Shown: positions 7,950-53,243 of the stretch, in pieces
Numbering within the stretch: position 1 is the stretch's first letter
Layout: each line of letters opens with the position of its first letter
Source: an uncultured Gemmatimonadales bacterium
Lineage (GTDB): Bacteria; Gemmatimonadota; Gemmatimonadetes; Gemmatimonadales; GWC2-71-9
NCBI GenBank assembly: GCA_963844035.1
Contig: CAWJMT010000023.1
Location: 1 to 53,303, forward strand
DNA: 53,303 nucleotides
Reading direction: 5' to 3'
Made by a program: the position numbers and the translations under genes
Notes under the pieces: model-generated
What the model was told of the DNA's origin: nothing
Database searches by the model: none
The model's input: the letters and a program-made list of their open reading frames with translations, nothing else

Positions 7950-8131
7950 GTAGGATGACCTCTCCGGTCAATCTCGGGAGCGCTGGGGGTGGCGGCAAGT
8001 GGAGGCCCGGACATGGCCGAGGATGTCAGCCGGGGCCCAGCCCATCGTCATCGGAATCGTGCCGCGTGCTGCCGTTCGGTTGCGCCGCTTCGTAGCCAGC
8101 CCTTCAACTCCGCATGCCGCATTCGCACCCC

Positions 8132-8190
8132 GCTCACTGCGTCGCAACCACGATAATCGCCACCGTGGCCGCCAGGATCTGCGCGACCGC
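8132..8190. repeat. 59-bp direct repeat, copy 2 (true 3' end of the SLBB/wza gene)
   Basis: Matches 7236-7294. Confidence 0.95.
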
Positions 8191-10376
8191 GCCCGCGAGC
8201 GCCACCCAGTCGGTGTGCACCGTCGAGTCCTTCGCCGGCACGAACACCTCCGACCCGGGCCCGGGCTTCGGGTTGCTCGAGGACAGCAGCGACGTGCCCT
8301 TGGTACGCACCTCGCCGTTCGCGTACTTCACGCTCACGCGTCCCTTGTCCGCCTTGTAGCTGAATCCGCCCGCCGCGCTGAGGTAGTACTCGAGGCTCTT
8401 GCCCTTCTGCCACAGCACGCTGCCGGGCGAGTTGACCGCGCCCGACACCTTCACGCTCGGCTGGTACTCCGGGATCAGGATCGAGTCGCCGGGCTGCAAC
8501 GTGATGTTGTGGTCCGAGGTACGATCCTTCAGCGCCTGCGGCAGCTCCACGTTGATCCGGCCCACGTCGTGCTCGGCACGGAAAAACTGGATCCCCTCCG
8601 GGTACGCCTGTGGGGTGAGGCCCCCGGCCCGGTCGATCAGGTCCGCCACGCGCTCGTCCTTCGTCTTCAATGTGTAGATGCCGGCAAACCGGACCTCGCC
8701 CGCGATGAACACGGTGCGCTGTAGCTGGAAGTCCGGCTGCTTCAGGATCAAGACGTTGTCGTACGGCTGGAGCACCACCTCGGGCGCGCCGCCCGCCGGG
8801 AAGGCCTCGCCGGCTGCGCCGAAGTAGCGGCCGGTGGAGTCGCGCTCGATCAAGTAGGTCGAATCGAGCGGCACCCGGATCGTCTCCGCGAGGCGGCCGT
8901 TGGCGCGGTCGGCCGGCAGCCGCGCGACCTCGGCCTCCTTGAGATAGGCGCCGACTCTGGGGCCGCGCGCCAGCAGCACGAGATCGCGCAGTGTGATCCC
9001 CTCGCGCCACGCGTATTGGCCCGGCTTGTTCACCATCCCGGCGATCGCGACGTACAGCGTGCTGCTGAGCCCCGGCACCGAGTCCACCACGACCGAGTCG
9101 CCGTTCTCGAGCGACACCGGCGGGACCACGACGCCGTTGATCACCGACGCCGCAGGCGCCGAGCGGGGAGCGGGCGTGAGGGCGACGTCCACGACGGCAC
9201 GCGGGTACGGCCCCGGTCCGCGCTGCGCGGCGGGGAGGATGCGGTGGACGGAGACGCGCCTGAGCGCCGCATTGGCCCGAAAGCCCCCCGCCGCCCGGAG
9301 CAGGTCCACCAGGGTTTCCGGGGCCTTCACCTCGTAGATGGCCGGCCGGATGACCGCTCCGGTGATCTGCGCCCGGGGTCCCGTGCAGCGGCACGAACAC
9401 CACGTCGCCCGGTTTCGAGCCGAATGTCGCTGCGCTTCTCTCCCCGCAAGAGATAATCGTAGAGATCGACCGACAGCTCGGGCTTGTCGATGCGGCGGAC
9501 CATGATGCGCCGCAGGTCGGCGCGGTCGGTGATGCCGCCCGCCGCATACAGCGAGGTCAGCACCGTGCCGAGCGCGCTCACCTGATACGCGCCGGGCTGC
9601 TTGACCTCGCCGATCACGTAGACCTGATTCACCCGCACGTTGACGACCGAGATGTCGAACCGCGTGGTGGCGTCGGCGCCGCGCTTCACCCCGGAGTACA
9701 CCCGGCCGAGGCGGGTGTACAGCAGGTCGCGCAGCTTGTCGAGCGTGAGATTGGCGACGAACACCTGCCCCACCTGGGGGATCAGCACGAATCCTTCGCG
9801 CGTCACCTGGAGCGCGTACGCGAACTCGAGCTCGCCCGTGAGGATCAGCACCAGATGATCGCCCGGGCCGAGCGCGTAGTCCGCCGGGACGGGACCGGCG
9901 AGCGTGGGCAGGAACTGCGTGGTGCTGCGCCGGAACACGTCGACGCCGAAGACGTAGTTCCCAGCCGCGAGTGATTCCGCGCGCAATGCCTCCTGCATCC
10001 GGATCATCCCGGTGTCGACGCGCATCTGGTCGGGCGGTGGCACCAGGGTCCCCAGGCCGAGCGCCTCCACCGCCGCGAGCTGGTCGGCGCCCGGGGTGAG
10101 GGCTGCCTGGCCCGGCTGCGCCGCGCCGAGATACGTATCGAGCAGGTCCGGGGGGTAACCGCTGGCCGCGAGCCGCGCGCGGACCTGATCGGGAGTCATG
10201 CCGGAGGCTTGCAGCCGCGAGCGCAGCTGCTCGGCGAGCGCGGGATTGGATTGCGCCGCCTGCAGCGCCTGGCGTACCTGGGACGGCGACGGGGTCTGCG
10301 CGAGCCCCGTGGAAGCGCCGCACAGCAGGGTTCCGACGAGCAGCGCGAGTCCGGATCGATTGCGTTGGGCGGCCAT
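8134..10376 (-). CDS. SLBB-domain polysaccharide export protein (Wza/KpsD-like; frameshift near 9380)
   Basis: Signal peptide, DYALGPGD Poly_export motif, repeated SLBB units (V.GEV..PG.Y, AAGG) and a C-terminal helix. Confidence 0.92.
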
Positions 10377-10493
10377 GGGCTCGCGCCAATATGCCTTTGT
10401 AACTGAATGCGAGTCAAGGCGTTAATCGCGTGCGCCTCGGGCGAACGTTAGCTTGTCGTCGTCCCGTCTACCTAATTGAGGAGATACGGTTGC

Positions 10494-11327
10494 ATGGGTC
10501 TGTTCGGGGCGGTGGCCCAGTATGCGCAAGACACGCTCTGCATCGTCAGAAGCCCTCATCCGTGGTCACGCCGGATGCGGCTCTGGCTGCGGCTGAATAC
10601 GCTCAGCGCGGGATTCAGGGCGGGCAACCTGCTCGGGTTTCAGGTCACTCGCTTCAGCGGCTCGACGTTCCTTCTCCTCTACCGCGAAATCTTTGCGCGT
10701 CAGTCCTATCTGTTCACGGCGCGCAGCGCGAGGCCGCTCATTCTCGATTGCGGCGCCAACATCGGCATGTCGGTCTTGTACTTCAAATGGCTCTATCCGG
10801 ACGCGGAGATCAGGGCGTTCGAGCCTGAGCCGCGAACCTTCGCCGCGCTGCAGGAAAACGTGGCGCGCAATCGTCTCGCCGATGTTGCCGTTCACAACAT
10901 TGCTCTATGGGATACCGATGGGCGCCTGGACCTCTTCGTGCCCGGGGATCAAGGTGGGAGTCTGGTCGCGAGCGCCAATCCCGCGCGGAGAGGCGGGACC
11001 GCCGTCAGCGTGCCGTGCGCCCGGCTGTCGTCGTTCATCGAACGTGAAGTCGACTTTCTCAAGATCGACGTGGAAGGCGCCGAGCTACGGATTCTCACGG
11101 ACCTGGCACAGTCGGGAAAACTGCGCCTCATCCGCCAAATGGTCATCGAATATCATCACAACATCCCCTCAGAGCCGGCGGCGCTGTCGCGCCTGCTGCA
11201 TCTCCTCGAGGACGCGGGCTTTACCTATCAAATGTCGGCGTGGTCCTTTCCCCTGGTCGGGAAAGAACATTTTCAGGATGTGCTCATCGGGGCGGTGCGG
11301 GCGGGGACCGTGGCGGGCGACGAGTAG
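10494..11327 (+). CDS. FkbM family methyltransferase
   Basis: ILDCGANIG, AFEPEP, FLKIDVEGAE, IEYH. Confidence 0.93.
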   Translation: MGLFGAVAQYAQDTLCIVRSPHPWSRRMRLWLRLNTLSAGFRAGNLLGFQVTRFSGSTFLLLYREIFARQSYLFTARSARPLILDCGANIGMSVLYFKWLYPDAEIRAFEPEPRTFAALQENVARNRLADVAVHNIALWDTDGRLDLFVPGDQGGSLVASANPARRGGTAVSVPCARLSSFIEREVDFLKIDVEGAELRILTDLAQSGKLRLIRQMVIEYHHNIPSEPAALSRLLHLLEDAGFTYQMSAWSFPLVGKEHFQDVLIGAVRAGTVAGDE

Positions 11328-11333
11328 CGCGAT

Positions 11334-11432
11334 CGCGGCTAAAGCCGCGGCTCGGCGTCTCCCGCTAAAGCGGGTTAGCGCGCCGCCCGTTTACGGGCAG
11401 GTGCCGAGCCGCGAGTTCACTCGCGCCGGCGA
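11334..11432. repeat. REPIN/BIME-like multi-hairpin repeat, left copy
   Basis: Hairpins CGCGGC-TAAA-GCCGCG, CCCGC-TAAA-GCGGG, GCCCG-TTTA-CGGGC and CGCGAG-TTCA-CTCGCG; near-identical to 12039-12136. Confidence 0.9.
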
Positions 11433-11523
11433 ACCGCGCGTTCACGGGCGAGCAGCGGGCTCTCGCGCCGATCCGCATTGAAATGATGACGCTCGCGTCA
11501 GAACTCGTGCGACACTCACGCCT

Positions 11524-11985
11524 GTGATCCACCGTCTCTACTGCCACGTCGTCTGGACCACGCGGAACCGAGAACCAGTCATTGATGCCGGACTGGCGCG
11601 TTTCCTTAGCGGCTTTCTCCGCGGTGTTGCGCGACAGGAGCGCACGCGAGTGCTCGAGATCGGGATGGTGGCGACGCATGTGCACTTGCTGATCCGTATC
11701 CACCCGACCACGGATTTGAGTCGCCTACTACAACGATTGAAGGGCGGTAGCTCCGCCGTCGCCGGCAAAGAGCGGCACACAACTCATGGCAACAGGCTCC
11801 GTTGGGCGAAGGGGTATTCCATCCACTCGGTCAGTCCTCGAACCATCGCCGTGGTACGCGACTATGTGCGGGGTCAGCCAACGCGGCACCCTGATGAGGC
11901 CATTCTGGACTGGGGTGGAGCGAGCCCGGAGTACGATCGATCGACTCAGGACGAGTGGAGGTCTGACCTGCGGCGTCGAGTGTGA
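11524..11985 (+). mobile_element. tnpA: IS200/IS605-family Y1 HUH transposase (TnpA, RAYT-like)
   Basis: LYCHVVWTTRNR, HUH motif HVH, LKGGSS, WAKGYS.HSVS, catalytic YVRGQ; no tnpB. Confidence 0.92.
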
Positions 11986-12038
11986 GTAAGGGCGCGGCTG
12001 AAGCGCGGCTGCGAGGTGCCGAGGCCCGCCCGCGGGTG

Positions 12039-12136
12039 CGCGGCTAAAGCCGCGGCTCGGCATCTCCCGCTAAAGCGGGCTGGGCGCCGCCCGTTTACGG
12101 GCAGGTGCCGAGCCGCGAGTTCACTCGCGCCGGCGA
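12039..12136. repeat. REPIN/BIME-like multi-hairpin repeat, right copy (degenerate extra unit at ~11992-12035)
   Basis: Direct repeat of 11334-11432. Confidence 0.9.
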
Positions 12137-12176
12137 GCGGCGGGCTCGAGAGTTCCGTTTCGTCGAGACTCGCGTC

Positions 12177-13454
12177 TCACCCGCGCAGCTTTCCGATCTG
12201 CTCTACCAGGTACGCCGTGAAGGGCAGGGAGCACGTGAACCCGGGCGAGACGGCGTTCAGCACGTGGAACGAGCGGTCGTCACCCTCGAACTTGAAATCC
12301 ATCTCCAGCCGGCGCTCCTGGACATCCACGAGCTGGGCGCGAATCCCGGCGCGGCCCCAATGGCGGAAGTGCTCCGGGCGTATCCCCTCGGCCAGCTCGG
12401 CGCCGAGTTCGACGATACGGCTGGGACGGTACTTGGCCATCTCCTCGAATGGCGAGGGCGCGGAAGCCGAAGTTGTTCTGAAGAAACAGGCCGGCTTCCC
12501 GCGTCAGAATCTCGATCATCTCCTTCAGGCTGAAACGACTCCATCCCGCGTACTGCTCGCGCCAGAATGCCGGGATCGCCGTGGGGCCGAGGGTGACCAC
12601 GCCGTCCACGTGGAGGGTGACGTGCACGCCGAGGAACGGCTGGCGCGGGTCGGGCACGGGGTAGATGTGCGTGCGGAACCCGGGGCTGCCGGCCGCGCCC
12701 TCGAGATACAGTCCCTTGAACGGCAAGATGCGCCAGCGCGCGGCGAAGCCCCAGTCGCGCGCGATCCGATCCGCCTGCAATCCCGCCGCATTCACCACAT
12801 ACCCGGGCGAGAGCGTGCCGGTGGTGGTGCGCACCGCGCTGCCCGATCGCCCGAGGTAGGCGATGCCGGGGAGCAGCGTGATCCCCTCGCTCCGGGCGTC
12901 GGCGACGAAGGCGTTGAGTACGGCGTGAGGATCGACCGACGAGGTGGTGGGTGAGAAGAGCGCCCGCTCGCATGTCTTCACACGGGGCTCGATGGCCCGC
13001 GCATCGGCGGCCGTGATGTCGTCGAGCGGCACGCCGTTGACCCGCCCCCGTCGCAGCAGCTCGGCAAGACCCGGAAGCTCGGCGGGGGTGCGCGCCACCA
13101 CGAGCTTGCCGCAGCGGTTGATCGGCAGGCCGCGCGCGACGCAGAACTCGGTGAGCTGACGGTTGCCGTCGCGCGTGAAGCGGGCCTTGAGGCTGTCGGC
13201 GGCGTAATAGAAGCCGGCGTGCAGCACGCCGCTGTTGCGGCCGCTCGCGTGCTCGCCCCAGGTTGGCTCCTTCTCGAGGAGCGTGACGGCGGCGCCCGGG
13301 TGGCGGCGGCGCAGCTCGCGGGCCAGGCTGATGCCGATGATGCCGCCGCCGATGACGAGAAAGTCGGGAGTGGGTAACGTGGGAATTGGGTCCTCGCTAG
13401 AATGGGCGGTCTGCCGGTCTGCCGGTCGGGCGGTCGAAGTAAGGCTGGTTCCAT
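12177..13454 (-). CDS. lhgO: L-2-hydroxyglutarate oxidase-like FAD oxidoreductase (frameshifted; start uncertain)
   Basis: DFLVIGGGIIG, ASGRNSGVLHAGFYY..DSLKA, NAAGLQAD, IYPVPD...PFLGVH, GIRAQ, HVLNAVSP. Confidence 0.9.
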
Positions 13455-13485
13455 GACCGCCTGACCGCCCGACCGCCCGACCGCC
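13404..13485. repeat. Octamer tandem-repeat hairpin: (GCGGTCNG)n ... (GACCGCCY)n
   Basis: Arms at 13404-13435 and 13455-13485 are reverse complements. Confidence 0.85.
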
Positions 13486-13522
13486 GAGGTACGTTAACCC
13501 ATCTCAGGAGAGACGGAAGCGC

Positions 13523-24579: not shown

Positions 24580-24703
24580 GGGGAACGACGGCCCGACGGC
24601 ACGACGGCCCGTTCCCCGAAGCGTGCGGTTCCGGGCAACGTGCCATCGTGCCCACGTGCCGTCGTGGCTGGCAACGTGCCGTCCTGCCGTCGTGCAACGT
24701 GTT

Positions 24704-25807: not shown

Positions 25808-25943
25808 GACATCGAGTGTGGAATGGGGACTGCGGAGTGTGAACTGCGGAGCGATCTTGCCTCTCGCTCTCGCGTCCCCACTTTTGCATTCCGCATTTGC
25901 CTCATTCCCCCCTCTGCATTCCGCGTTATATTTGCCGCTTCGC

Positions 25944-29753: not shown

Positions 29754-30809
29754 TGCTGGTTGAGGAGCGCAGGGGGGCGGTGGTCGAGACCCGGCATCGG
29801 GTCCACGCCGCCGTCGTGGACGCCGAGCGGTCGGCTCCTGGCACAGGCTGGCAATCCGGAGCTCGTGACCTTCTGGCGCTCCGGCGCGAAGCCGTTTCAG
29901 GCGCTCCCGCTCGTGACGGACGGCGTCGCGGGCCGGTTTGGCATCACCGCCCAGGAGCTCGCCATCTGCTGCTCGTCCCACTCGAGCGAGCCGGCCCAGG
30001 TGCAGCTCGTGCGCGACCTGCTGGCGAAAATCGGCTGCAGCGAACGAGACCTGGTGTGCGGCCCGCATCCGCCCCTCTCGCCCGCGGTGGCGCAGGACTA
30101 CGCGACCCGCGGCGTGCGGCTGACCGCGGTGTACTCGAATTGCTCGGGCAACCATGCGGCGATGCTTGGCATTGGCCCGCCATCACGACTGGCCGGTGGA
30201 GTTCTACGCCCGCTTGGAGCACCCGGTGCAGCAACGCTGCCTGGCCGAAGTGAGTACGTGGAGCGGCGTGCCGCTCGGGAACGTCGGCACTGCGGTGGAT
30301 GGGTGTGGCGTGGTGTGCTTCGCGCTGCCGCTCCGGAACATGGCGTGGGCGTATGCAAGACTGGCGAATGCGGAGTGCGGAGTGCGGAATGCGGAGTCGG
30401 CGGACGACGTCTCCATTCCCCATTCCGCATTCCGAATTCCGCATTGTGGAGGCCATGCTGCGCCATCCCGAGCTCGTCGCGGGCGAGGGCCGGCCCTGCA
30501 CCGAGATGATGCGCGCGCATCCGGGCCGCGTGGTCACCAAGGCCGGTGCGGCGGGCGTCTACTGTGGCCTGTTGACGCGCGAGACGCTGGGGCATCGCGC
30601 TGAAGATCGACGACGGGCACGGCGAAGCGGCGGTCCTCGCGATGTCGGCGGTTCTGGCGGAGCTTGGGGTGCGGCCTCAGCCCGAGACGCTCCGGTCGCG
30701 CGCGATCGTCAACACGCGCGGGGAGACCGTGGGCGAGCTGCGCGTAAATGGGGGACTGACGCACGCAAAGGATGCTGGAGGATCGGGAGGAGTGATGTAC
30801 AATGCCTGA
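29753..30809 (+). CDS. L-asparaginase II family protein (frameshifted)
   Basis: RGAVVE..H, RSGAKPFQA, CSSHS, NCSG.H, DGCG, K.GA.GV motifs. Confidence 0.88.
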
Positions 30810-31484
30810 GCGCTCGACGGGTCTCGATGCGCAGACGCGCGCCCTGGTGCACGTGGCGGTCGCGGTCGCGAGCGGCGACACCGTGGCGCTGCGCCAACGG
30901 CTGGGGGCGGCGAGCACGGCACGGGTGCCGGCCCGGTGGATTGACGAGCTGCTGCTCCAGAGCTTGCTCAACGTGGGCTACGCCTTGGGGCTGCAGGCAT
31001 TCGGAGTCTGGCGCGAGGTGAGCCCGGCGCCGGCCGCAGGCTCGGCCGAGGCCGGGGAAGCCACTCGCTCATCGGGATGTGGTCCGACTGGGCGGAGCGA
31101 GGGGCGCGAGTCTGCCGCGAGGTGTACGGCCGCACGTATCACAAGCTGCTCGTGAACCTGCGCGGGCTGCATCCGGCGCTCGAAGCGCTGGTGGTCGTGG
31201 ATGCCTACGGCAAGCTGATCGGGCGCGACGGGCTCGACTTGAAGCGGAGGGAGCTGTGCACGCTCGCGGAGATCGCGGTGATCGACACACCGCGTCAGCT
31301 CCACGCGCACTTGCGGGGTGCGCTGAACGCGGACGCAACGACGGAGGAGGTAGATGAGGTGTTGGCACTCGTGGAGCTCGACATCGACGCGGCACAGGCC
31401 AAGCGGACGTGGGAGCTATGGGCGGACGTGCGAGGACGAAACGTGGGGAGCGGGGACGCGGGACGAGGGACGGGTAACACATGA
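30802..31484 (+). CDS. Carboxymuconolactone decarboxylase family protein (frameshifted)
   Basis: DAYGKLIGRDGLDLKRRELCT, RQLHAHLRGALN. Confidence 0.85.
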
Positions 31485-31533
31485 CCGCCCGACCGCCTGA
31501 CCGTCTGACCGCCGCCTTTTCAGAGGACCACGC

Positions 31534-33712: not shown

Positions 33713-34113
33713 GTGAGTGGCAGTAGCCATCGCGCGCTGCGGGCTTTACGCGCACGTCACATGGCACACGTGGCGGCGGGTGGCCCAGATACGCAAGGCG
33801 ACGTGCCGCTCATCGCTGACAGCATTCTGAACGCCGGCGAGTCGCACAGGCGTGCGGGTGCATGCGCAGGCCGTCCTCACCGACCACGTCCACGTGCTGG
33901 TGAGCTTCCCACCCGCGGTGGCGCTCGCGTCCTTCTTCCGTGAGGCCAAGTCCGAATCGGCCGGCGCGTCAATGTTGCACGGGACGCGATGGGCAGCGCG
34001 TACGGTGGTGTCGCGGCTACTACGCGGGATCACTGTCCCGAGACCACGTCGGCCGCGACGCGGGTCTACGTCGCGACGGCAGTTTCCGCGCACCCAGATC
34101 GCATCCCGGCTAG
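33713..34113 (+). mobile_element. tnpA: Second IS200/IS605-family Y1 HUH transposase (RAYT-like, multiple frameshifts)
   Basis: Fragments across frames: LYAHVTWHT, DHVHVLVSFPP, AKSES, WCRGYYAGSLS, VYVA..Q...HP; flanked by palindromes. Confidence 0.8.
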
Positions 34114-34240: not shown

Positions 34241-35397
34241 GTGCGCCACCTCTACGTCCACGTCCCCTTCTGCGTCCGCCGCTGCTCCTACTGCGACTTC
34301 TCGATCGCGGTGCGCAAGCGCATTCCGGCGACAGGAGTACGTGGAGTGCGTGCAACGGGAGCTGCGGTCGGTGGTCGAGTCCGGGTGGGTTCGCCCCGGG
34401 GCCACGCCCCGGGGCTCCGGTGGGCCTCGAAACCCTCTACTTCGGTGGCGGCACGCCCTCACTGCTCGGCGCCGACGCGCTGAGCGGCCTGCTGCGGTCG
34501 CTGCTCGATGCCGCATCGTCTTCGGCGACGCGCGACGCGAGTTGAAGTCACGCTCGAAGCCAATCCGGAGGACGTGACCCCCGCGGCGGCTCGGGAATGG
34601 CGCCGGGCCGGTGTCAACCGCGTGTCGCTCGGTGCTCAGTCATTCGACGATCGCGTGCTCCAATGGATGCACCGCTCGCACGACGCCGCGCGGATCGGTG
34701 AGGCGCTGCGCACGCTCCGGTCGGCGGGGATCGACAACATCTCGCTCGACCTGATTTTCGCGCTGCCGGTCGAGCTGCGAGCGCGACTGGTCGCGCGACT
34801 TGGATGCCGCCCTCTCCCTCGATCCCTCGCACCTGTCGTTGTACGGACTCACCGTCGAAGAGCGCACACCGCTGGCGCGCTGGATCTCTCGCGGCGCCAC
34901 GTCCGCGCCCGATGACGAGCGCTACGCCGCGGAGTACCTGCTCGCCCATGAGCGACTCTCGGCGCGCGGGCTATCATTTCTATGAGGTATCGAATGCGTG
35001 CCGGGACGGCTCGCCGGTCGCGCCACAACTCTGCGTACTGGACCGGGCGTGAGTACGTTGGACTAGGGCCCGCAGCGCATTCATTTGACGGCCGTGCGCG
35101 GCGCTGGAACGTCCCCCAATGGGAGGCCTACCGCAGCGCGATCAGCGGAGGTCGCACGGTTGTTGAGTCGCGAAGAAGTGCTGACTCCAGAGCAGCGGGA
35201 ACTGGAACGTGTCTATCTCGGGTTGCGCACCGACGCGGGCTTGCCGTCGTCCGCCTTCCCGCCTTCCCGCCTTCCCGCCTGGATTCGGCAGGGCTGGGTT
35301 CGAGGTAGCAGGGGACCGCATTCGCTGCACGCCCGAAGGGTGGCTCCGGCTCGACGCCTTGGTGCGTGACTTGACCGGGCCAACGGCAATTTTGTAA
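34241..35397 (+). CDS. hemW: Radical SAM heme chaperone HemW (frameshifted)
   Basis: [52 protein letters not shown]; upstream of hrcA. Confidence 0.93.
34382..34417 (-). repeat. REP copy lying inside hemW
   Basis: Reverse complement GAGCCCCGGGGCGTGGCCCCGGGGCGAACCCACCCG matches 33663-33697. Confidence 0.8.
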
Positions 35398-38685: not shown

Positions 38686-40978
38686 GCGTGGGTGGAGGGG
38701 CCGCCCCCTCCGTGCTGGAGACCCTCGAGTTTCCTGGCGCACTGGAGCGCGTGGCAGCGCACGCCGTCTGCACGCTCGGGGCCGATCGAATCCGCGCCCG
38801 CAGTCCCGCCACCGATGCCGAGACCGTCCGGGCAGCGCTCGCCCAGGTCGCCGAGCTGGCGGCCCGCATCCTCTCCGACGATTCCATCCGCGCCGAACCC
38901 GTCGCCGACATCGCTGCGACACTCGACCTGCTCGCGGTGCCGGGCAGCGTGCTCGAGGGTCTCGCCCTGTCGCAGGTCGGGGGTGCCCTCGCCGCCAGCC
39001 CGCCTGGTGGCGGCCGAGTTGGCGCGCCTCGCGCCCGACGCCCCCCGGGTGGCGACGCTGCGCGCGGCGCCGCTCCCCAAGGATCTCGAGACGCGTCTCC
39101 AGGAATCGCTCGATGCGGATGGCAGCGTGCGCGACGGGGCCTCCCGCGGACTGGCGCGCGCGCGGCAGGCGGTGCGCGAGACCCGCCAGCGCCTGATCGC
39201 CAAGCTCGAGGCGCTGCTCGGAGCCCTCGACGACCGGGAGCGGGCTCCCGACGCCGCCGTCACCGTGCGCGGGGGCCGCTATGTGGTGCCGGTGCGCAGC
39301 ACGTCGCGCGGCCATATCGGCGGGATCGTCCACGACGAGTCCGCGACGGGCGCGACGGTGTTCGTGGAGCCGCCCGAAGCGGTGCAGCTCGGCAACGAGC
39401 TGCGCGCGCACGAGGTGCAGGAGCAACGCGAGGTGATGCTGGTGTTGCGCGAGCTGACCGACCGGCTGCGTCCACACCACGACGCCATCGCGGCTGCCTG
39501 GGAGATGTGCGTCGCGTTCGACGACCTCTGCGCACGGGCGCGCTACGCGATCGAGGTGAACGGGTTCGCGCCGGTCATCGGCACCGGGCCGCTCAAGATG
39601 CGGAGTGCGCGGCACCCGCTGCTGGTCGGCGGCGCGATCGCGGTGGTGCCGTTCGACCTGACGTTTGCCCCTGACGAATTCACGCTGCTCATCTCCGGCC
39701 CGAATACCGGCGGCAAGACGGTGCTGATCAAGGCCGTCGGATTGATCTGCCTGCTGGCGCAGAGCGGCATCATCCCGCCGCTTGGCCCCGATTCCGAGCT
39801 GCCGGTGTTCCGCGACGTATGCGCCGACATCGGTGACCGGCAGTCGATTGCCGAGAGCCTCTCGACGTTTTCGGCCCACGTGGCGGCGCTCCGCGACCTG
39901 CTCGAGCGTTCCGGTCCAGGAACCCTCGTGCTGCTCGACGAAATCGGCAGCGGCACGGACCCGGCCGAGGGAGCGGCGCTCGCGGCCGCGGTGCTGCGCA
40001 CGCTCACCCGCCGGCGTGTCGTCACGCTCGCGACCACGCACTTGGGGGCGCTCAAGCGGCTGGCCGCCGAGACGGTGGGGATCGTGAACGGCTCGCTCCA
40101 GTTCGACGCACAGACCCTGACGCCGACGTACCGGCTCTTGAAGGGCGTGCCGGGGCGCTCGTACGGATTGGCAATCGCGCGCCGGCTGGGAGTGGACGAA
40201 GCAATCCTGGCGGAGGCGGAGCGCACCTTACCGGAGACGGAGCGCACCCTCGATGCGTTGCTCGCGGCGGTCGAAGCGAGAACGAAGGAGCTTGAGGAAC
40301 GCGACACCGCGTTGCGGGCGGCGGAGGAGGCTACGCGCGTCGAGCGAGACATCCTCGAAACGCGAGGGGCGGCGCTCGAGCAAAGCGAACGCGACGTGCG
40401 CGACCGGGCGCGGGCCCTCGACAGCCAGGCGCGCGAACAGACGCGCGCGTATCTGCTCGAGGCACGGCGGCGCGTCGAGGAGGCGCTGGGCTTGGCGCGT
40501 GCCGCGGTAGACGAAGCGACCGCGAAGGAGGCGAGGCGGTTGGTCGAGAGTGCGCTTGCGGAGACCGACACTGAGACGAGGGAAGAGGGAAGGGGGAAGG
40601 GGGAAGGGTGGCTGTCGCTGGAAGAGCTGCGGCGGCTGCGGCGCCGTCGGTCGCCCGACCGCCTGACCGCCCGACCGCCCGCTTTCCACCCGCCCGACCG
40701 CCCGGGTACCGTCCACCGAAGTTGAGACCATCGCTCCCACGGAGATTTCTCTCCGCGGCCTGCGCGTCGACGAGGCCGAGGCCGTGTTGATCCGGGCGAT
40801 CGACGACGCCGTCCTTGCTGAGCTGCCATACCTGCGGGTGATCCACGGCAAGGGCACGGGTGCCGTGCGCCGGCTGGTGCAGGAGATCGCCGCCGGTGAC
40901 AAGCGGGTGGAGCGGTTTGCGTTCGCCCCCGCGAACCAGGGTGGTGCGGGCGTGACGGTGCTGGAGTTCCGCCGCTGA
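38682..40978 (+). CDS. mutS2: Endonuclease MutS2 / Smr-domain protein (frameshifted)
   Basis: TLEF, HDESATGATVFVEP, ISGPNTGGKT, SLSTFSAH, LDEIGSGTDP, TTH; Smr IHGKGTG and GGAGVT. Confidence 0.95.
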
Positions 40979-40980: not shown

Positions 40981-42740
40981 ATGATTCCCGACGAAATCAT
41001 CGAGCAAGTGCGCGATGCCGCCGATCTCGTCGGCATCGTGGGCGAGCACGTGGAATTGAAGCGCACCGGCGCGGACTACCGCGGGCCCTGCCCGTTCCAC
41101 GGCGGCACGCACCGCAACTTCGCGGTCATCCCGAAGAAGGGAATGTTCTACTGCTACGTCTGCCACGAAGCGGGCGACGTGTTCAGCTTCTTCATGAAAA
41201 AGCTCGGGATGGATTATCCGACGGCGGTGCGCGAGGCGGCCCGGCGATCGGGGATCACCGTGCCGGAGCGGAGCAGCTCGGGCGGCGGGGCGGACCCGCA
41301 CGAGCCGCTGTTCGGGGCGGTCGCGCTGGCCGCCGACTGGTTTGCCCGCCAGCTGCGGGAGAGCCCCGAGGCGGAGGTCGCCCGGCAGTACCTCGTGTCC
41401 CGGCAGCTCGATCTGGAGACGGTCCTGCCGCTCGGGCTCGGCTACGCCCCGCGCGGCACGGCGTTGTTCGACGCGATGAAAAGCTTGGGCGTGCGCGATC
41501 CGGTGTTGCTCGAGGCGGGCTTGGCGGTGAAGAGAGATGACGGCAGCGTCATCCCCCGGTTCCGGGGACGGCTGCTGTTTCCGATTCACGACCTGCGCGC
41601 GCGGGTGATCGCGTTCGGCGGCCGGATCCTCGGCCCGGGCGAGCCCAAGTATTTGAACTCGCCCGATACGCCGATCTTTCACAAGGGAACGCTGCTCTAC
41701 AACCTGCACGCCGCGAAGCACGCGATCCGCAAGGCCGAGCGCGCAATTGTGGTGGAGGGCTACTTCGACGTGTTGCGGCTGGCGCTCGCCGGGCTCGAGG
41801 AGGTCGTTGCACCGCTCGGCACCGGCTTGAGCGCGGAGCAGGCGCAGCTGCTCACGCGCTATACGTCGCACGTGATCCTGCTCTACGACTCGGACGACGC
41901 CGGTCTCCGCGCCACGTTCCGCGCCGGCGACGAGCTGCTGCGGCACGGATTGCGCGTGACCGTGGCGACGCTGCCGGAGGGGGAAGATCCCGACACCATC
42001 GTGCAGCGGCACGGGGTCAAGGCACTGACCGACCTGCTGAAGGACGGGGTGGACCTGTTCGAGCGCAAGATCCAGATCCTCGACCGCAAAGGGTTCTTCG
42101 CGTCGCTCCCGGGGCGAAGGCGCGCGCTCGACCGCTTGCTGCCGACGATCCGCGCGGCGCGGGACGGGATCACCCGGGAGCTGTACCTCTCGCGTGCCGC
42201 GGAGGCGGCGGGAGTCCGGAAGGATGTGTTGGAGCGGGAGGCACAAGGCGGCGGTCAGCCGGTCAGGCGGTCAGCCGGTCAGAAGCTCGGAGTGACCAGT
42301 CGACCGCCAGACCGCCTGACCGCCCGACCGGCGCCCCGTCGGGCGCCGAGAAAGCCTTCCTGCTTCTCATGCTCGAAGGCGAGCCGTGGCGCGCGCGGGT
42401 CCTCGAAGCTGTCGACGCCGACGATTTCGAGTTCGCACCGTACCGGGCCGTGTTCGAGGCGCTGGTGGAGGATTCCCCCGAGCGGCTGGACGAGACTGCG
42501 GCGCGCACGTTCGAGCAGCTTCGGGCCGAGGGGCTGGGAGCGCGCCTGCCGGACGAGATCCTGGCCGGTGCGGTCGGCTGGATCGAGGCGAGGGGTTTGC
42601 AACGACAGGTGGAATCGATCGATCGCGAGCTGCCGCTCGCGAGTGAAGAGGAAAAGGTCAAGCTTGCGATTCAGAAGCAGCAGCTCAGCGCGGAGATGAA
42701 CGCGCGACATCCGAAGTGGAAGGCGTTAACGAAATCCTAA
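40981..42740 (+). CDS. dnaG: DNA primase (frameshift near 42330)
   Basis: CPFH...CYVC zinc finger, FRGRLLFPI, KYLNSPDT, VEGYFD, YDSDDAG, DPD. Confidence 0.97.
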
Positions 42741-48681: not shown

Positions 48682-49483
48682 CGCGCCTCGGCCAGCACTT
48701 TCTCGCCGATCGCAACCTGCTCGAACAAGATCGTCGCCGCGCTCGATCCGGCGCCGGACGACGTCGTGATCGAAATCGGGCCGGGGGAGGGGAGTCTCAC
48801 CGGCATCCTGGCGCCGCTCGTCTCGCGGGTGATCGCGATAGAGACGGATCGCCGGTTGGCAGCGGAGCCGAGGGAAGAGGGAAGCGGGAATGCGGGAAGC
48901 GTGAGGTCGTCGAGGGGGACGCGCTCAAGGTCGACTGGCATGGATTGGTTCACCCTTCCCTCCTGCACTCTTCCCACTTCCCGCCTTTAAGGTCATCGGA
49001 AATATCCCGTACTACATCACCTCGCCCCTCATCGAAAAGGCGCTCACGCCCCCGCTCCCTGCCCGCGTCGTGTTTCTCGTGCAGCGCGAGGTCGCCGACC
49101 GGCTCGCCGCCGCGCCGGGGAGCAAGCGCTACGGGGCGCTCTCGGTGGGGGTTCAGGCGGTGTGCCGGGTCGAGAAGCTGTTCGTCGTGAAGGCCGGCGC
49201 GTTTCGTCCTGCACCACGAGTGGACAGCGCGGTGGTGCGGTTCACGCCGCTCCCCGCTCCATTGATCGCCGCCGCCGAAACGGCGGCATTTCGGACGTTC
49301 GTCACCGCCTGCTTCAGCCGTCGGCGCAAGCAGTTGCGCAACGCGGTCATGGCGGCGACGGGCCGGCCGGCGGCGGAGGTGAGCGCACTTTTGAAGGCAC
49401 TCGAGCTCCCGCCGGCGGCGCGGCCCGAGACCCTGGCCCCTGAGGTATTTGTGCGACTCTTGCGCGCGAGCCCTGTATTGTGA
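48678..49483 (+). CDS. rsmA: 16S rRNA adenine dimethyltransferase RsmA/KsgA (frameshifted)
   Basis: LGQHFL, IEIGPG.G.LT, GNIPYYIT, QREVA.R, F.PAPRVDSAVV, RRKQL.N. Confidence 0.95.
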
Positions 49484-49495
49484 AATAGTTCACAA
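49478..49495. promoter_or_regulatory. Rex operator (ROP)
   Basis: TTGTGAA-ATAG-TTCACAA, an exact match to the TTGTGAA-N4-TTCACAA consensus, 1 bp before the rex ATG. Confidence 0.92.
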
Positions 49496-49496
49496 T

Positions 49497-50117
49497 ATGC
49501 GGAAGATCGCCGAGAGCACGGTCCGCCGCCTCTCGCTGTACCTCCGGTTCCTCGAGCAGTTTGCAGCCCAGGGACATACGACGGTCTCGTCGGCAGAGCT
49601 TGCCCGCCGGGGGGGCACAACGTCGGCACAGGTGCGCAAAGACCTGTCGTTCTTCGGGTCGTTTGGAAAGCGCGGCCTGGGGTATTCGGTGGCCGAGCTG
49701 GCTGCCAAGATCCGCGACATCCTGGGCCTCGAGCGCACCTATCGCGTGGTGCTCGTCGGGGCGGGCCGCATCGGCAGCGCGCTGGCGCAGTATCCGGGGT
49801 TCCGCCAGCGCGGCTTCAACGTCATGGCGATCTACGACACCGATCCCAAGAAGGTCGGCGGACGCTGGAACGGATTGGTGGTGCGCGACGTGAGACACCT
49901 CGAAGCGGATCTCAAGCGGGACCCGAGCGACATCGCCATTCTCGTGACCCCGGCGGACGCGGCGCAGGAAGTGGCCAACCGCCTGGTGCACGCGGGCGTC
50001 AAGGCGATCCTCAACTTCGCGCCGGTGCAGCTCACGGTGCCGCGCGACGTGGTAGTGAAATCGGTGAACATGGCGCTCGAGCTCGAGACGCTGAGTTTCG
50101 CCTTGGCCAATCGGTAG
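49497..50117 (+). CDS. rex: Redox-sensing transcriptional repressor Rex
   Basis: RRLSLYLR, QVRKDLSFFG.FG.RG.GY, VGAGRIG, ILNFAP. Confidence 0.97.
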   Translation: MRKIAESTVRRLSLYLRFLEQFAAQGHTTVSSAELARRGGTTSAQVRKDLSFFGSFGKRGLGYSVAELAAKIRDILGLERTYRVVLVGAGRIGSALAQYPGFRQRGFNVMAIYDTDPKKVGGRWNGLVVRDVRHLEADLKRDPSDIAILVTPADAAQEVANRLVHAGVKAILNFAPVQLTVPRDVVVKSVNMALELETLSFALANR

Positions 50118-50158
50118 GTCGGCCCTCGGGATTCCGCATTCCGCATTACCTTTCGTTC

Positions 50159-51396
50159 ATGGCGACGCGCGTGCACGTGACGTCCGAAATCGGCCCCTTG
50201 CGGGCCGTTCTCGTTCACACCCCCGGGCCGGAGCTGCTCGGCGGTCACCCCGGCGAACCGCGAGGACTACCTCTACGACGACATCATCGACCTCGAGCAG
50301 GCGCAGCGGGAGCACCGGCGGTTGGTCGCGGTGCTCGAGCGGTTCGCCGAGGTGTACGAGATCCGCACGTCTGCTCGACCGAGATCGTGGCGCGCCCCGA
50401 GGTGCGGGACCTTCTCGTGACCCGGACGCTCGACGTCGTGCCGTCGGACGCTCTCGCCAAGACGCCTCGCCGCGCTGCCGGCGAAGGAGCTGGTGGACGT
50501 GCTGATCGACGGGGCGATCGAGGAGGCGGGCCCGATCGCGCGGGCCCTGAACGAGACCGGGTACGTGCTGCCGCCGCTGCCGAACCTGTTCTTCACGCGC
50601 GACGTGGGGCATGGTGATCGGCGAGCACGCGGTCGTCGGCTCGATGCGCTACGGCGTGCGCTGGACCGAGGAGCTGCTGGTCTAGGCGCTGTTCCGCTAC
50701 CACCCGCGCCTCGAGAACGCCGGCATGCTGTACGACGGCTCGGAGGAGAAGCGCGGCAACTACACGCTCGAGGGCGGCGACGTCCACCCGCTGCGGCCCG
50801 ACCTCGTGGTGCTCGGCTTCACCGAGCGCTCCAGCCCCGGCCGCCCTCGATCAGCTGTGCGATCTGCTGTTCGAGCGCTGCGGCGTCACGGACGTGATCG
50901 TGGTCGTGCTGCCCAAGGAGCGCACGGCGATCCACCTCGACATGATCTTCACGCAGGTCGACACGCGAGCAGTGCGTGCGTGTACCCGCCGCACTTCGTC
51001 GGGCCGGAGCGCCTGGCGGTGCTGCACCGGCGCAAGCGGTCCAAGCCGTCAAGGAGATGCCGAACTTCTTCGCGGCGCTGCACACCGTCGGCCAGCCGCT
51101 CGAGCCGGTGTTCTGCGGCGGGTCGAACCGCCCGACCAGGAGCGGGAGCAGTGGTCGTGCGGCTGCAACTTCTTCGCGGTCCGGCCCGGGGTGGTGGTGA
51201 CGTACGAGCGCAACGAGGCGACGCTGCGCGAGATGCGAGCAGGCGGGGTTCGGCATCACTCCGGCGGCGGACCTGCTGACCGGGCAGGAGGCCGGCGGGC
51301 GAGCGGGCGGTCATCACCATCGAGGGCAGCGAGCTGGTGCGGGGCGGGGGCGGCCCGCGCTGCATGACGCTGCCGCTGCGCCGCGACGACCTGTGA
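50159..51396 (+). CDS. arcA: Arginine deiminase family protein (heavily frameshifted, one in-frame TAG)
   Basis: [54 protein letters not shown]. Confidence 0.88.
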
Positions 51397-52186
51397 GCGG
51401 GCTCGCCGCGTTCCCCGCTTCGAGCCTCGCGAACCGCGCGGCGGCGTACCTGGAGGCGGGCCCCGCCTCGAGCATCGCGCGTCGAGACGTGCTGGGGCTG
51501 GGCGCGACCCCGCGCGCCCTGGCGGCCAAGATTGCCCAGGCGCTGGTGGGCGGCGATCCCCGGGTGGCGCCGACGCCCGAGGGCCGCTGGGCGCTCGTCG
51601 GGACCGCGAGCGACGCTGCCAGCCCCGACTCGGTGCGTGCCGGTACGCCGTGGTGGACGTCGAGACGACGGGCGGCAGCGCCCGGGCCGGCGGCCGCATC
51701 ACGGAGATCGCCATCGTGCACGTGGACGGGACCACGCCGCGGTCGCATTTGACTGCCTGGTGAATCCCGGCGTGCCGCTCTCGCCGTTCGTCACCCGGCT
51801 CACCGGCATCAGCGACGCCCCGTGCGCGGCGCGCCGCGGTTCGAGGAGATCGCCGACGCGGTGCTGGCAGCGCTGGCGGGCAGCGTGTTCGTGGCGCACA
51901 ACGCGCGCTTCGACCTGTCGTTCGTGCGCGCGGAGCTCGAGCGGGCCCGCGACGTGCTGCTTCCAGGGCCCCCGCGCTCTGCACGGTCCGGCTCTCCCGC
52001 GCGCTTGCTGCCCGACGCTGGCCGCCGCAATCTGGACAGCGTCATCGACTTGTTCGGCATCACCACCGAGCGGCGCCATCGCGCCGCCGGCGACGCCCTC
52101 GCCACCGCGCGGATCTTGCGGGCGCCTGCTGGGCCGCGCGGCGGAGCGGGGCGTCGCGCACCTGGCAGGAGCTGGCCGCGCTGTAG
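51393..52186 (+). CDS. DnaQ/DEDDh 3'-5' exonuclease with N-terminal extension (frameshifted)
   Basis: [36 protein letters not shown]. Confidence 0.88.
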
Positions 52187-52189
52187 CGA

Positions 52190-53056
52190 TCCGCCCTCGC
52201 CGCACGCGTCTTCACCGTCGGCCGCCTGACCTGCTGGACCCTCGACGCCGGCCTGCAGCGCCTCGACGGCGGCGCGATGTTCGGCGTGGTGCCGAAGCCG
52301 CTGTGGGAGCGGCGCATCCCCGCCGACGCGCGCAACCGCATCCCGCTGGCGCTGCGCTGCCTGCTCGTCGAGCACGACGCCGGCCTGGTCCTGATCGACA
52401 CCGGCATCGGCAACAAGGACGATCGCGAAGTTCCACGACATCTACGGCGTCGAGAACACGGGCGGCCGGGCCGACGCAGCTCGAGGACGCGCTCTCGGCG
52501 GCCGGCTTCCGCCCGCCGAGGTGCGCTGGGTGGTCAACACGCACCTGCACTTCGATCACGCCGGCGGCAACCTCCACCGGGCGCCGGATGGCTCCGTCGC
52601 CCTCGTTTCCCGAACGCGCGCTACGTGGTGCAGGTGCGGGAGCTCGAGTTCGCGCCGCACACGAACGAGCGCACCCAGGCGAGCTATCCGCCGGCCAACT
52701 TCGCGTCGGTCCCGTTCACCCAGGTGGACGGGGAGGTGGAGATCGTGCCGGGGATCCGGCTCCTCCCCACGCCGGGCCACGTCCCCCACCATTCCGGTGC
52801 TGATCGAGAGCGGCGGCGAGGCGGGGCTGCTTCCTCGGCGACGTCGTGCCGACGAGCGCCCACCTGCCGCTCGCCGTGGATCATGGGGTACGACCTCGAG
52901 CCGCTGGTGACGCTGGAGACGAAGCGCCCGGCGTACCGGCGGGCGGAGGGGGAGGGGTGGCAGCTGTTGTTCGAGCACGACCCGGCCGTCGTGGCGGGGC
53001 GCCCGGGGGCGGGAGGGGAAGGGAATTGTCTTGTGGAGCCGCGACGTCGAGGGTAA
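52190..53056 (+). CDS. MBL-fold metallo-hydrolase (YtnP-like; frameshifted, start uncertain)
   Basis: LDGGAMFGVVPKPLW, LIDTGIG, THLHFDHAGG, TPGH, MGYD, FEHD. Confidence 0.9.
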   Translation, partial: SALAARVFTVGRLTCWTLDAGLQRLDGGAMFGVVPKPLWERRIPADARNRIPLALRCLLVEHDAGLVLIDTGIGNKDDREVPRHLRRREHGRPGRRSSRTRSRRPASARRGALGGQHAPALRSRRRQPPPGAGWLRRPRFPNARYVVQVRELEFAPHTNERTQASYPPANFASVPFTQVDGEVEIVPGIRLLPTPGHVPHHSGADRERRRGGAASSATSCRRAPTCRSPWIMGYDLEPLVTLETKRPAYRRAEGEGWQLLFEHDPAVVAGRPGAGGEGNCLVEPRRRG

Positions 53057-53090
53057 GTTGCTGCCCACAATACGGTAAGCGGGCGCCGTT

Positions 53091-53243
53091 GGCGTCCGAC
53101 CCGCCGCCTCGCGAGAGTGCTTTAGGGTATTCAGTTGCGCCGTCAGCCATCAGCGATCAGCCCTCAGAGGCTGCCCGCTGACTGCTGAGGGTTGATAGCT
53201 GATGACTCTTTTGGCGGCGGGCTCCCGGACGGACGGGGTCCGC
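53091..53243 (+). other. Candidate structured RNA / 5' leader containing a heptamer-repeat hairpin
   Basis: Outer stem CCCGCCGCC..GAGAGT / ACTCT..GGCGGCGGG; inner TCAGCCATCAGCGATCAGCCCTCAG / CTGACTGCTGAGGGTTGATAGCTGA; AGGAGGAG RBS downstream. Confidence 0.45.

Follow-up and report, generated by a model that had tools for sequence, protein, structure and literature searches.

Four-unit heptamer and octamer repeat arms in a Gemmatimonadales genome and a possible link to four-helix-bundle proteins

Introduction

What gives rise to runs of 7- and 8-base units that turn up, often as two inverted arms, within genes and at gene junctions of a bacterial genome? The question was raised by 53,303 nucleotides of DNA from an uncultured Gemmatimonadales bacterium (contig CAWJMT010000023.1; hereafter the window), in which an initial annotation had marked 14 array stretches and proposed that they share one architecture while using several unit alphabets. 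All 14 are present at the positions it gave, and the common architecture is borne out (Table 1). The answer that we tentatively favor joins two puzzles, namely four-unit heptamer and octamer repeats that lack a cause (in Geobacter, Xanthomonas and cyanobacteria) and the S23p/IVP family of four-helix-bundle proteins, which lacks a function.

Results

The arrays are real and peak at four units

Period-7 and period-8 arrays are confirmed as real; they repeat a 7- or 8-base unit about four times. The genome scan that the initial annotation had suggested found 259 of them, against 4 in 3 Mb of an order-5 Markov null: 134 with period 7 (3 in the window; null, 2) and 125 with period 8 (8 in the window; null, 2). 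A stricter score left 99 and 97, respectively, and none of either in the null, and no other period showed a comparable excess of genome over null. An inverted partner lay within 600 nt of 149 of the 259 arrays, compared with 12 of 777 random positions. Arrays of two, three, four, five and six units numbered 35, 75, 150, 8 and 1, a sharp peak at four in counts that include some arrays twice and in which related families overlap; each of the four null arrays had only two units. Plain slippage, one of the mechanisms first put forward, does not fit numbers that climb from two units to four and then drop. The phase of the unit within arms is fixed, and the inner end is GT in 55 of 76 GGGAAG-type arms. 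Arrays were also found at the same sites in independent genomes and metagenome contigs, and in a second strain copy on C12.

Six of nine window elements folded better than shuffled sequences (z -3.0 to -6.6), and those at 31440-31517 (z -0.9), 40572-40710 (0.05) and 48862-48992 (0.0) did not; the first two of these have mismatched arm units. The element at 8101-8131 is marginal on its own, because it scored only 13.5 in a scan with the unit library and the reversed-window control scored as high (15 hits at 13 or above). The element at 24582..24700 reaches beyond the coordinates in the initial annotation.

Table 1. Repeat arms in the window, with their state in relatives (G numbers)
Feature	Position	Strand	Context and remarks
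Decayed G-rich arm, GCGGAAT family	8101..8131	-	Directly behind polysaccharide-export gene stop, upstream of Uma2; partnerless; marginal
Paired arms, GGCGGTCR family	13404-13436 + 13454-13485	.	17-nt loop; upstream of epimerase gene; z -5.0
8-mer arms, GACGGCAC-like	24582..24700	.	Glycosyltransferase/glycosyltransferase gene junction; one arm at 24582-24611, two inverted at 24639-24666 and 24675-24695; z -3.0
Decayed paired arms, GCGGA[AG]T family	25814..25928	.	Upstream of tRNA-Met (25944); z -4.1; G002 without arms at this site
Paired arms, GCGGA[AG]T family	30366-30397 + 30414-30445	.	Within L-asparaginase II gene, near profile position 213; z -6.6; same family in G006 and G009, shorter variants in G002 and G004, none in G003
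Mismatched arms, GGGACGN (31445-31474) and GACCGCCY (31482-31513)	31445..31513	.	Carboxymuconolactone-decarboxylase-like gene/obgE junction; four-helix-bundle cassette at same junction in six relatives
Solo arm, GGCGGGAA family, C-rich on coding strand	35251..35280	-	3' part of radical-SAM gene
Mismatched arms, GGGAAGG (40580-40608) and GACCGCCC (40652-40704)	40580..40704	.	MutS2 linker; encloses WLSLEELRR codons, conserved in genus
Paired arms, GGCGGTCA family	42250-42282 + 42301-42330	.	DnaG inter-domain linker; z -6.6; arms of different units at this site in relatives
ksgA/rsmA first arm, GGGAAGN	48868..48901	+	In coding sequence
Host ksgA codons between arms, EVVEGDALKVDWH	48902..48952	+	Conserved residues in 26 orthologues
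ksgA/rsmA second arm, inverted, CTTCCCN on coding strand	48953..48987	-	
Short solo arm, GCGGAAT family	50131..50147	-	rex/arginine deiminase junction; full hairpin in G006; four-helix-bundle cassettes in G018, G021 and G063
Paired arms, TCAGCCA family	53139..53202	.	6-nt loop; intergenic; z -3.7; same family in strain copy on C12 and in G015; different palindrome in G002 and G006

Paired arms have a fixed polarity and enclose host DNA

Among 309 arms, the G-rich arm came first in 78 pairs and second in none, and both arms belonged to the same unit family in 74 of the 78 (26% expected by chance). About half of the arms (153) were solo; their weak partners lay on the 3' side 34 times and on the 5' side once, and on the coding strand G-rich solo arms outnumbered C-rich ones by 55 to 25. 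Directly behind stop codons there were 76 G-rich arms versus 24 C-rich ones. A handful of units keep reappearing at sites whose flanks are unrelated, and what the pairs enclose is the site's own DNA: terminator-like stems, ksgA codons or a four-helix-bundle gene. Conserved host codons lie between arms in genes other than ksgA as well.

Arms add residues to housekeeping proteins

Of 230 elements that could be scored, at least 32 sit within an open coding frame. In the window, arms lie in five genes (asparaginase II, a radical-SAM gene, mutS2, dnaG and ksgA/rsmA), and at the same loops of these genes relatives carry in-frame arms built from other units. The radical-SAM gene is probably hemW, judging from its position upstream of hrcA. 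Alignment of host genes revealed the presence/absence variation among relatives that had been anticipated.

The claim that arrays lie inside housekeeping genes and add residues is borne out in ksgA, for which we collected 109 loci and analyzed 83 after dropping 26 that were truncated or in which the motifs were not found. Armed alleles lengthen the two segments from medians of 20 to 26 and 17 to 31 aa. Both arms were present in 33 of the 83 loci, from one family in 32 of these and of one variant in 28, with six unit families overall. The enclosed codons include G81, D82, A83, L84 and W88, which are invariant or nearly so. The added peptides had been pictured as loops, but not every insert is floppy, since the first arm is predicted to lengthen a helix in a structural model of a relative's KsgA. 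In 22 non-independent pairs of close ksgA alleles with different units, the enclosed codons were 77.5% identical, against 95–97% in the far flanks; because these codons differ too, recent unit swaps look like imports of old patches and not like rewriting in place.

Compared with aligned relatives, the window shows a frame offset near the arms of asparaginase II, mutS2, dnaG and ksgA. Close-relative contigs differ from it by 21 small indels in 5.7 kb (the 12 listed are all single-base), and the ksgA and dnaG shifts coincide with G or C runs; we therefore read the offsets as long-read errors. As for phase-variable simple sequence repeats, in which a change in copy number would switch the frame, relatives keep the frame at the arms, although extraction of ksgA itself required an open frame. 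A search for reads of the exact strain found none (best share of words, 0.27).

Four-helix-bundle genes lie between inverted arms

All seven PF05635 loci in the genome carry inverted arms (four strong and three weak, the latter being copies of one site), against a background in which 20 of 3305 genes are bracketed. The gene association that the initial annotation proposed to test held for four-helix-bundle genes and failed for Uma2 (0 of 5 loci) and Y1 transposase genes (0 of 4), and the idea of nuclease insertion scars is not supported. One of two DUF559 cassettes passed our score, but both have a different, C-rich-first palindrome and were set aside; PF13366 (GxxExxY nuclease) was not found in a search of the genome.

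The PF05635 cassettes are about 450 nt long with a single gene, and all seven sit between protein genes; the window itself holds neither a cassette nor an rRNA gene. In relatives, both arms were present at 51 of 89 loci, 48 of the 51 pairs agreeing within two substitutions, and one clade of six loci was armless. Cassettes do relocate: grouped by site, 90 of their loci make up 49 groups. The closest solved relative of the protein is the five-chain XCC0516 (2GSC, E 6e-22).

When each of 36 sites was represented by a single locus, similarity between units tracked the identity of the four-helix-bundle protein (Mantel rho 0.19, p 0.0002) and did not follow the host genome (0.036 vs 0.033). Across 101 genomes, which include kin and are not independent, the number of arms matching two patterns had a median of 40 with a PF05635 gene and 1 without. 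At least 30 hits were found in 47 of 82 gene-positive and 0 of 19 gene-negative genomes; 7 or fewer were found in 21 of the gene-positive genomes, the patterns covering only two unit classes, and 23–29 in 4 of the gene-negative ones. No cassette in this assembly matches the GGGAAG/GGGACG arms (84 of 309), the GGCGGTCA variant, GCGGAAT or TCAGCCA; the arm family second in size in this genome is among those that lack one. The cassette variant was the genome's commonest in three of five genomes (G001, G004 and G049, not G006 and G009). The link between gene and unit could be mere co-inheritance in cis.

Protein-guided template switching as a candidate mechanism

In the reading that we favor, four-helix-bundle proteins would set the repeat unit and help to copy it to new places, each probably by binding its own four-unit arm in single-stranded DNA form. 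In the fuller reading, the arrays form the arms of a repeat system that is dispersed through the genome and linked to PF05635 ('23S rRNA intervening-sequence') genes, and S23p/IVP pentamers would act as sequence-specific repeat-writing factors, each subfamily writing its own 7- or 8-base unit in four copies, with fixed polarity, flanking host DNA. We put this forward tentatively, as possible but somewhat short of probable, and would say the same of the best mechanism that we can offer for it, protein-guided template switching at the DNA level. The cassettes have no catalytic gene, so any enzyme would be the host's. The protein would be a ring of five subunits that binds nucleic acid; its footprint would fix the arm length at four units, and it would hold a donor arm beside a stalled 3' end. 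A host polymerase would copy the arm by template switching, and so write it into, or on top of, sequence that can tolerate it, for example at a stop-codon junction or in a linker or signal peptide, and a fold-back switch would then give an inverted copy 0–120 nt further on. Gene-breaking copies would be purged by selection. Finished arm-loop-arm patches would likely travel between strains by homologous recombination, which would also yield the few mismatched pairs. The unit swaps between close strains, which look like whole-patch imports, and the lack of a cassette for the second-largest arm family speak against the model. Of the mechanisms first proposed, templated synthesis at hairpins is still the best class; plain slippage and nuclease scars are not supported. 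The coding-strand bias of solo arms is left unexplained by template switching.

An alternative that we regard as unlikely has the protein reading the arms instead of writing them. Here 7–8-nt duplications made by slippage would escape mismatch repair, and arrays that fit the site bound by a four-helix-bundle protein already in the cell would be kept, or spread by recombination. MutS is encoded in the genome, and loops over about 4 nt evade it; the co-occurrence, the clade-unit link and the exchange of patches between strains would all be explained. Slippage as the origin of heptamers is also an idea cited in the Xanthomonas/Nostoc report (PMC4692102). It is harder to reconcile with the same few units amid unrelated flanks, with two-unit precursors that are rarer than four-unit arrays, and with two ksgA loops that host six unit families, each as a matched pair.

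Rather doubtful, too, is a scheme in which both 3' ends, at a break or at paired staggered nicks, are extended on a short template by some four G-rich units, in the manner of telomerase, and are then rejoined. The strict polarity and the solo arms would follow directly, and the genome encodes Ku, but the RVT_1 search of this 84%-complete genome found no reverse transcriptase, and some arms overwrite host sequence: the hemW-like site is roughly length-neutral (a gap of 129 nt in the arm-less G016 allele versus 130 in the window), and in ksgA the median gain from the first arm is only 6 aa.

We give a similarly low probability to MITE-like decay, by which whole arm-gene-arm cassettes insert through some enzyme and leave gene-less hairpins and solo arms as remains. 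Filled, empty and arm-less states do occur at two window junctions, and cassettes do move. The loops, however, showed no match to cassette interiors beyond 11–14 nt and no family resemblance, the window's obgE-junction arms differ from those of the cassettes found there in relatives, and for in-gene split pairs the scheme is contradicted by the conserved host codons enclosed in ksgA and other genes. Target duplications of at least 4 nt did not exceed the null: 4 of 78 pairs had one of 4 nt (null, 3.6) and no pair had a longer one. A small excess was seen for 3-nt matches (21 vs 13.9) and for 4-nt matches at solo arms (16 vs 9.4), the position of the edges being accurate only to within a few bases.

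It is improbable that the arms are kept for a function in RNA, as transcript stems (RNase III sites or stabilizers) or as G-quadruplexes. The excess of G-rich arms behind stops, as in Xanthomonas (PMC4692102), and the coding-strand bias of solo arms would agree with such a role, as would a Coxiella element whose 28-bp stem with heptamers is cut by RNase III (PMC4990558). Yet in 41 hairpins the sense strand had no excess of G-U (46, vs 68 A-C oppositions) and gave the better fold in 19 and the poorer one in 21, solo arms make up about half of the total, and the origin of the arms is left unexplained. Four GGG tracts per array were present in 107 of 129 arms of three families and in only 1 of 180 arms of the six others, and we rejected G-quadruplex-forming repeats as the class to which these arms belong. 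The hairpin data favor the DNA level over the RNA level.

Finally, a long-read or assembly artefact, for which single-base errors and strain-duplicate contigs in the assembly might speak, is refuted for the family by the same-site arrays in independent genomes, metagenome contigs and the strain copy on C12, and we dismiss it.

Discussion

If four-helix-bundle proteins do write repeats, an uncharacterized family would acquire a function and the excess of heptamer repeats in bacteria a cause, and operon junctions and protein loops would be seen to be remodeled. If they help to write the arms, bacteria would have a way, needing no transposase, of adding defined peptides to essential enzymes and of bracketing terminators and coding segments. 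Each protein subfamily gains a predicted target sequence, which makes a binding assay and a gene swap straightforward.

Rickettsia palindromic elements are dispersed palindromes tolerated in frame in housekeeping proteins. They and MITE/REP elements are copied whole, with a conserved interior; here, in contrast, only the arms recur and the interior is host DNA, with no shared or autonomous-element-derived interior among the loops and no linked transposase found. REP elements with a Y1 (RAYT) transposase were rejected, as the Y1 loci carry other palindromes. Cyanobacterial STRR are grouped with the heptamer repeats of Xanthomonas and Nostoc.

For the repeats themselves, the initial label 'undescribed' was too strong, since such repeats are in print for Geobacter metallireducens (PMC2700814) and for Xanthomonas and Nostoc (PMC4692102). 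The Geobacter arrays Gmet_H4 and Gmet_I1–I4 consist of four 7- or 8-nt units in several classes per genome, lie in and between genes and form opposite-strand pairs; ours are likewise four-unit, multicopy and dispersed, with opposite-strand pairs at variable spacing inside and between genes. There they are interpreted as regulator binding sites or regulatory RNAs, and the report's account of these elements describes no four-helix-bundle link, fixed polarity or unit turnover at orthologous sites (PMC2700814). The GGGAATC and GGGGA(C/T)T repeats of Xanthomonas and Nostoc also occur within and between genes, prefer four units, can form inverted pairs and place the G-rich copy behind stops on the sense strand or, on the antisense strand, ahead of starts (PMC4692102). 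That report explains them by G-quadruplex potential, which six of the nine families here lack, and octamers and frequent in-frame copies set the present genome apart.

The ORF-bearing 23S rRNA intervening sequence with S23p has a PF05635 gene inside a stem of about 28 bp with heptamers in its 5' arm (PMC4990558), much as the gene lies within complementary arms at all seven loci here, and the solved family member is a homopentamer. Unlike that sequence, none of our cassettes is in rRNA, and gene-less pairs and solo arms far outnumber them. Avd, which is reported to be homologous to this family (PMC10053308), is a positively charged pentamer required for templated cDNA synthesis (PMC6182149), that is, a pentameric four-helix bundle that aids templated DNA synthesis. 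A diversity-generating retroelement as such was rejected, as RVT_1 was not found in the 84%-complete genome and a reverse transcriptase, a template region and a variable region are all missing from the one-gene cassettes. In the literature we found no paper tying these repeats to a four-helix-bundle protein. To these systems the present analysis adds a sharp four-unit limit, a strict polarity, the absence of an RNA-strand signal, signs of whole-patch exchange between strains, a test of the clade-unit link across independent sites and a count of co-occurrence across genomes.

The arrays are real and abundant

All 14 repeat stretches that the initial annotation listed are present in the window (G+C 68.6%), which lies in a 3.47 Mb assembly of 39 contigs estimated as 84% complete. 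The genome holds 134 arrays of period 7 and 125 of period 8; a 3-Mb null from an order-5 Markov model yielded two of each. For 149 of the 259 genomic arrays an inverted partner lies no more than 600 nt away, compared with 12 of 777 random sites. In the window, six of nine elements gave more stable folds than shuffled sequences and three did not.

The assembly contains duplicate strain contigs of ~81-99% identity and many single-base errors. Identity is mosaic over that range in its duplicated regions (contigs C12/C23, C3/C35/C28, C13/C32, C1/C17, C1/C9/C30 and others), pointing to a mixture of strains and to recombination at a high rate. No reads from the source strain turned up in the sequencing runs searched; comparison contigs from these runs represent relatives, taken from the best four runs per search with runs of small share left out.

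Anatomy of arms and loops

By fixed-phase matching, under which families overlap somewhat, 35, 75, 150, 8 and 1 arrays have two, three, four, five and six units, respectively, and the null produced four arrays, all two-unit. The inner ends of the arms are fixed, with a GT terminus in 55 of 76 GGGAAG-type arms. Altogether, 156 of 309 arms make 78 pairs (at most 130 nt apart) and 153 are solo. The G-rich arm came first in 78 of 78 pairs and the reversed order in 0; both arms belong to the same unit family in 74 of the 78, versus 26% expected. Weak partners of the solo arms (n=153) lay on the 3' side in 34 cases and on the 5' side in 1. G-rich arms begin at a stop codon or shortly after it (76 vs 24), and C-rich arms end ahead of start codons (29 vs 17). 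G-quadruplex potential is found in only three of nine unit families.

The loops measure 0-123 nt and each is unique; by inspection they contain stems like those of terminators, one stretch resembling a promoter, and hydrophobic segments reminiscent of signal-peptide cores. Comparison of loops with cassette interiors (a cassette being a PF05635 gene enclosed by inverted arms) and with each other gave no resemblance signal, and we therefore rejected loops as cassette remnants or mutual copies. Target duplications of at least 4 nt in pairs were not above the null, which, together with the host DNA held in the loops, argues against insertion of whole elements. Individual sites are collected in the table.

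Features of the window and of other contigs of the source assembly (G000; C-numbers are its contigs, other G-numbers related genomes)
Feature	Location	Strand	Observation
Polysaccharide-export gene end	window 7237-7297, 8132-8190	-	Last ~60 bases, including stop, repeated ~900 nt downstream
Uma2 gene	window 7380-7949		Between the two near-identical gene ends
Array	window 8101-8131		Marginal
Y1 (IS200-like) transposase gene	window 11530-11877
Two 99-bp palindromic repeats	window 11334-11432, 12039-12136		96% identity
Y1 element	window 11334-12136		More copies on C4 and C27
Second Y1 transposase	window 33741-33962		Interrupted; between dprA and radical-SAM gene; GGGGT/ACCCC-type palindromes on both sides
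mutS2 linker	window 40576-40705		Short in most same-genus alleles; ~90 nt extra in G017 and G022, presumably akin to a KOW-type segment; arms positioned where this segment is missing
TCAGCCA hairpin	window 53142		In G002 and G006, replaced by a palindrome similar to the DUF559-flanking one
CAG/CAA (glutamine) run	window 53287-53303		At contig end; extends in C12 copy; start of next gene
Signal-peptide-like site	G000:C3:12151-12230, G000:C35:283199-283290		Arms flank apparent hydrophobic core; units of both arms differ between strain copies, outer edges identical
In-frame pair	G000:C9:91759-91886		Around ~23 codons including TKAD, a motif typical of GTPases; second split pair, ksgA-like
tuf-like paralogues	G000:C10:59393-60770, G000:C31:9748-11090		GGTGTCA hairpin upstream of each, loops different; downstream, hairpins of differing units with stop codon inside first unit
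DUF559 genes	G000:C37:35725-36015, G000:C35:168206-168400		Palindromes flanking both genes are of a different family, with the C-rich part leading

Judged from the sequence, the Uma2 site has the look of an integration event in which the 3' end of the polysaccharide-export gene was duplicated, and the first Y1 element is REP-associated-transposase-like.

Arms within genes

Arrays had been said to lie inside housekeeping genes, and five genes of the window carry them (asparaginase II, the radical-SAM gene before hrcA, mutS2, dnaG and ksgA); in the genome as a whole, no fewer than 32 of the 230 elements that could be scored fall within an open coding frame. Relatives differ at such sites, as proposed: across 30 loci the DnaG linker carries in-frame arms of many units, or none. 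The arm in the radical-SAM gene leaves the length unchanged relative to an arm-less allele, so arms can overwrite host sequence. With regard to a possible purging of in-frame stop codons from translated arms, the stop-making base was kept at 0 of 8 in-frame versus 5 of 18 out-of-frame positions.

The ksgA gene has conserved codons between its two arms. We found 109 ksgA loci, 83 of them analysable; both arms occur in 33, belonging to the same family in 32 and being the same variant in 28. The suggestion that arms add peptide loops fared unevenly in an AlphaFold model of KsgA from the relative G006, in which the fold is predicted to be kept (mean pLDDT 92): the second arm forms a low-confidence loop, and the first would instead lengthen a helix.

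Among close ksgA alleles that differ in unit, identity is 95-97% in the far flanks and 77.5% in the enclosed codons, and one ksgA locus (L097) has its left half from one allele and its right half from another. The best reading of unit changes between strains is therefore that old arm-loop-arm patches recombine. Rapid rewriting in place, considered because the assembly's two copies of ksgA have swapped units, was dropped because the enclosed codons are divergent too.

Arms enclose four-helix-bundle genes

Widely spaced arms, when sought, pointed to four-helix-bundle genes, one of the partners proposed in the initial annotation. All seven PF05635 loci of the genome, at five distinct sites, are enclosed by inverted arms that share their unit families with the dispersed arms, and a strict bracket score was passed by four of the seven versus 20 of 3305 background genes. 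The two other partners proposed there failed: none of five Uma2 loci and none of four Y1 transposase loci were bracketed. We also rejected DUF559 nuclease genes, which are flanked by a different palindrome, GxxExxY nuclease genes, not found in the genome, and reverse transcriptase, as RVT_1 was not found in this 84%-complete genome.

The junction upstream of obgE has gene-less arms in the window and full cassettes in six relatives, and the junction behind rex has gene-less arms in the window and full cassettes in three. A putative cassette of G013 at the 53142 site had no flank that matched the window. Across 101 related genomes, the median number of hits to two arm patterns was 40 with the gene (n=82) and 1 without it (n=19); at least 30 hits were present in 47 of 82 gene-positive and 0 of 19 gene-negative genomes, although kin are not independent, and 21 of the 82 had at most seven hits for the two patterns. 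The same patterns reversed also pick up further genuine families of arrays, and this control did not serve as the null. The same-genus genome G003, which is 100% complete, lacks the PF05635 gene and has two arm hits; clear arms were present at none of its six alignable sites.

Clades of PF05635 proteins share units within the clade, with subfamilies including those with GGTGTCA, GGCGGTTA and GCGGAAY units. We collected 90 cassette loci in 49 site groups, 36 of which have a clear unit. With one locus per group, unit similarity tracked protein identity (rho 0.19, p 0.0002; for nearest neighbours, 0.092 vs 0.032), and across the 36 groups it did not track the host genome; the unit-protein effect is modest. 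One four-helix-bundle clade (loci L205, L209, L212, L242, L246 and L250) has no detectable arms and offers a natural negative control for binding. The assembly has no cassette for the GGGAAG/GGGACG family, to which 84 of the 309 arms belong. The cassette variant was the genome's commonest in only three of five genomes, a count that leaves out the AGT variant of G016, and we rejected it as a predictor of the genome's variant.

How the arms might be written

The cassettes encode no enzyme. The closest solved relative of their protein is the five-chain XCC0516, described in PMC10053308 as homologous to Avd. Avd in turn is reported to be a pentamer that carries positive charge and is needed for the synthesis of cDNA from a template (PMC6182149). 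Template switching between inverted arms is an established process (PMC8604942, PMC3820800). We infer that a protein ring may bind its own arm as single-stranded DNA and that the bound ring would promote template switching by the host polymerase, from a donor arm first and then by fold-back; we regard this as a serious possibility, short of probable.

Slippage had been among the mechanisms suspected at the outset. The fixed length, the set phase and the recurrence of a few units at sites with no relation to one another speak against its plain form, and slippage with arrays then selected for binding seems rather unlikely. Arms might also arise where a break is extended and rejoined, for which Ku is present in the genome, or remain after cassette decay; each of these strikes us as unlikely, to about the same degree. 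The sense strand has no excess of G-U, the difference being slightly reversed (46 vs 68), which favours a process at the DNA level; a function at the RNA level is improbable. That long reads or assembly created the arrays is scarcely credible.

Relation to known repeats

Heptamer repeats of this kind are on record. PMC2700814 describes four-unit heptamer and octamer arrays in Geobacter metallireducens, in opposite-strand pairs and also within genes, and its supplement lists neighbouring genes, which may bear on novelty. Four-unit G-rich heptamers of Xanthomonas and Nostoc (PMC4692102) are placed as the arms are here; TAACTGA repeats are reported from Beggiatoaceae (PMC4679880), and a stem arm of the Coxiella 23S intervening sequence contains heptamers (PMC4990558). 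Among the matches listed, in literature that left subscription journals mostly uncovered, no printed tie between PF05635 genes and dispersed arms appeared. If the proposed role in writing arms were confirmed, it would be categorically new. The claim of an undescribed system divides: the arrays are genuine, occur throughout the genome and belong to a class of repeats that has been described though not explained, and their partner gene family and bracketing anatomy fit no definition of MITE, REP, nuclease cassette or retroelement tested.
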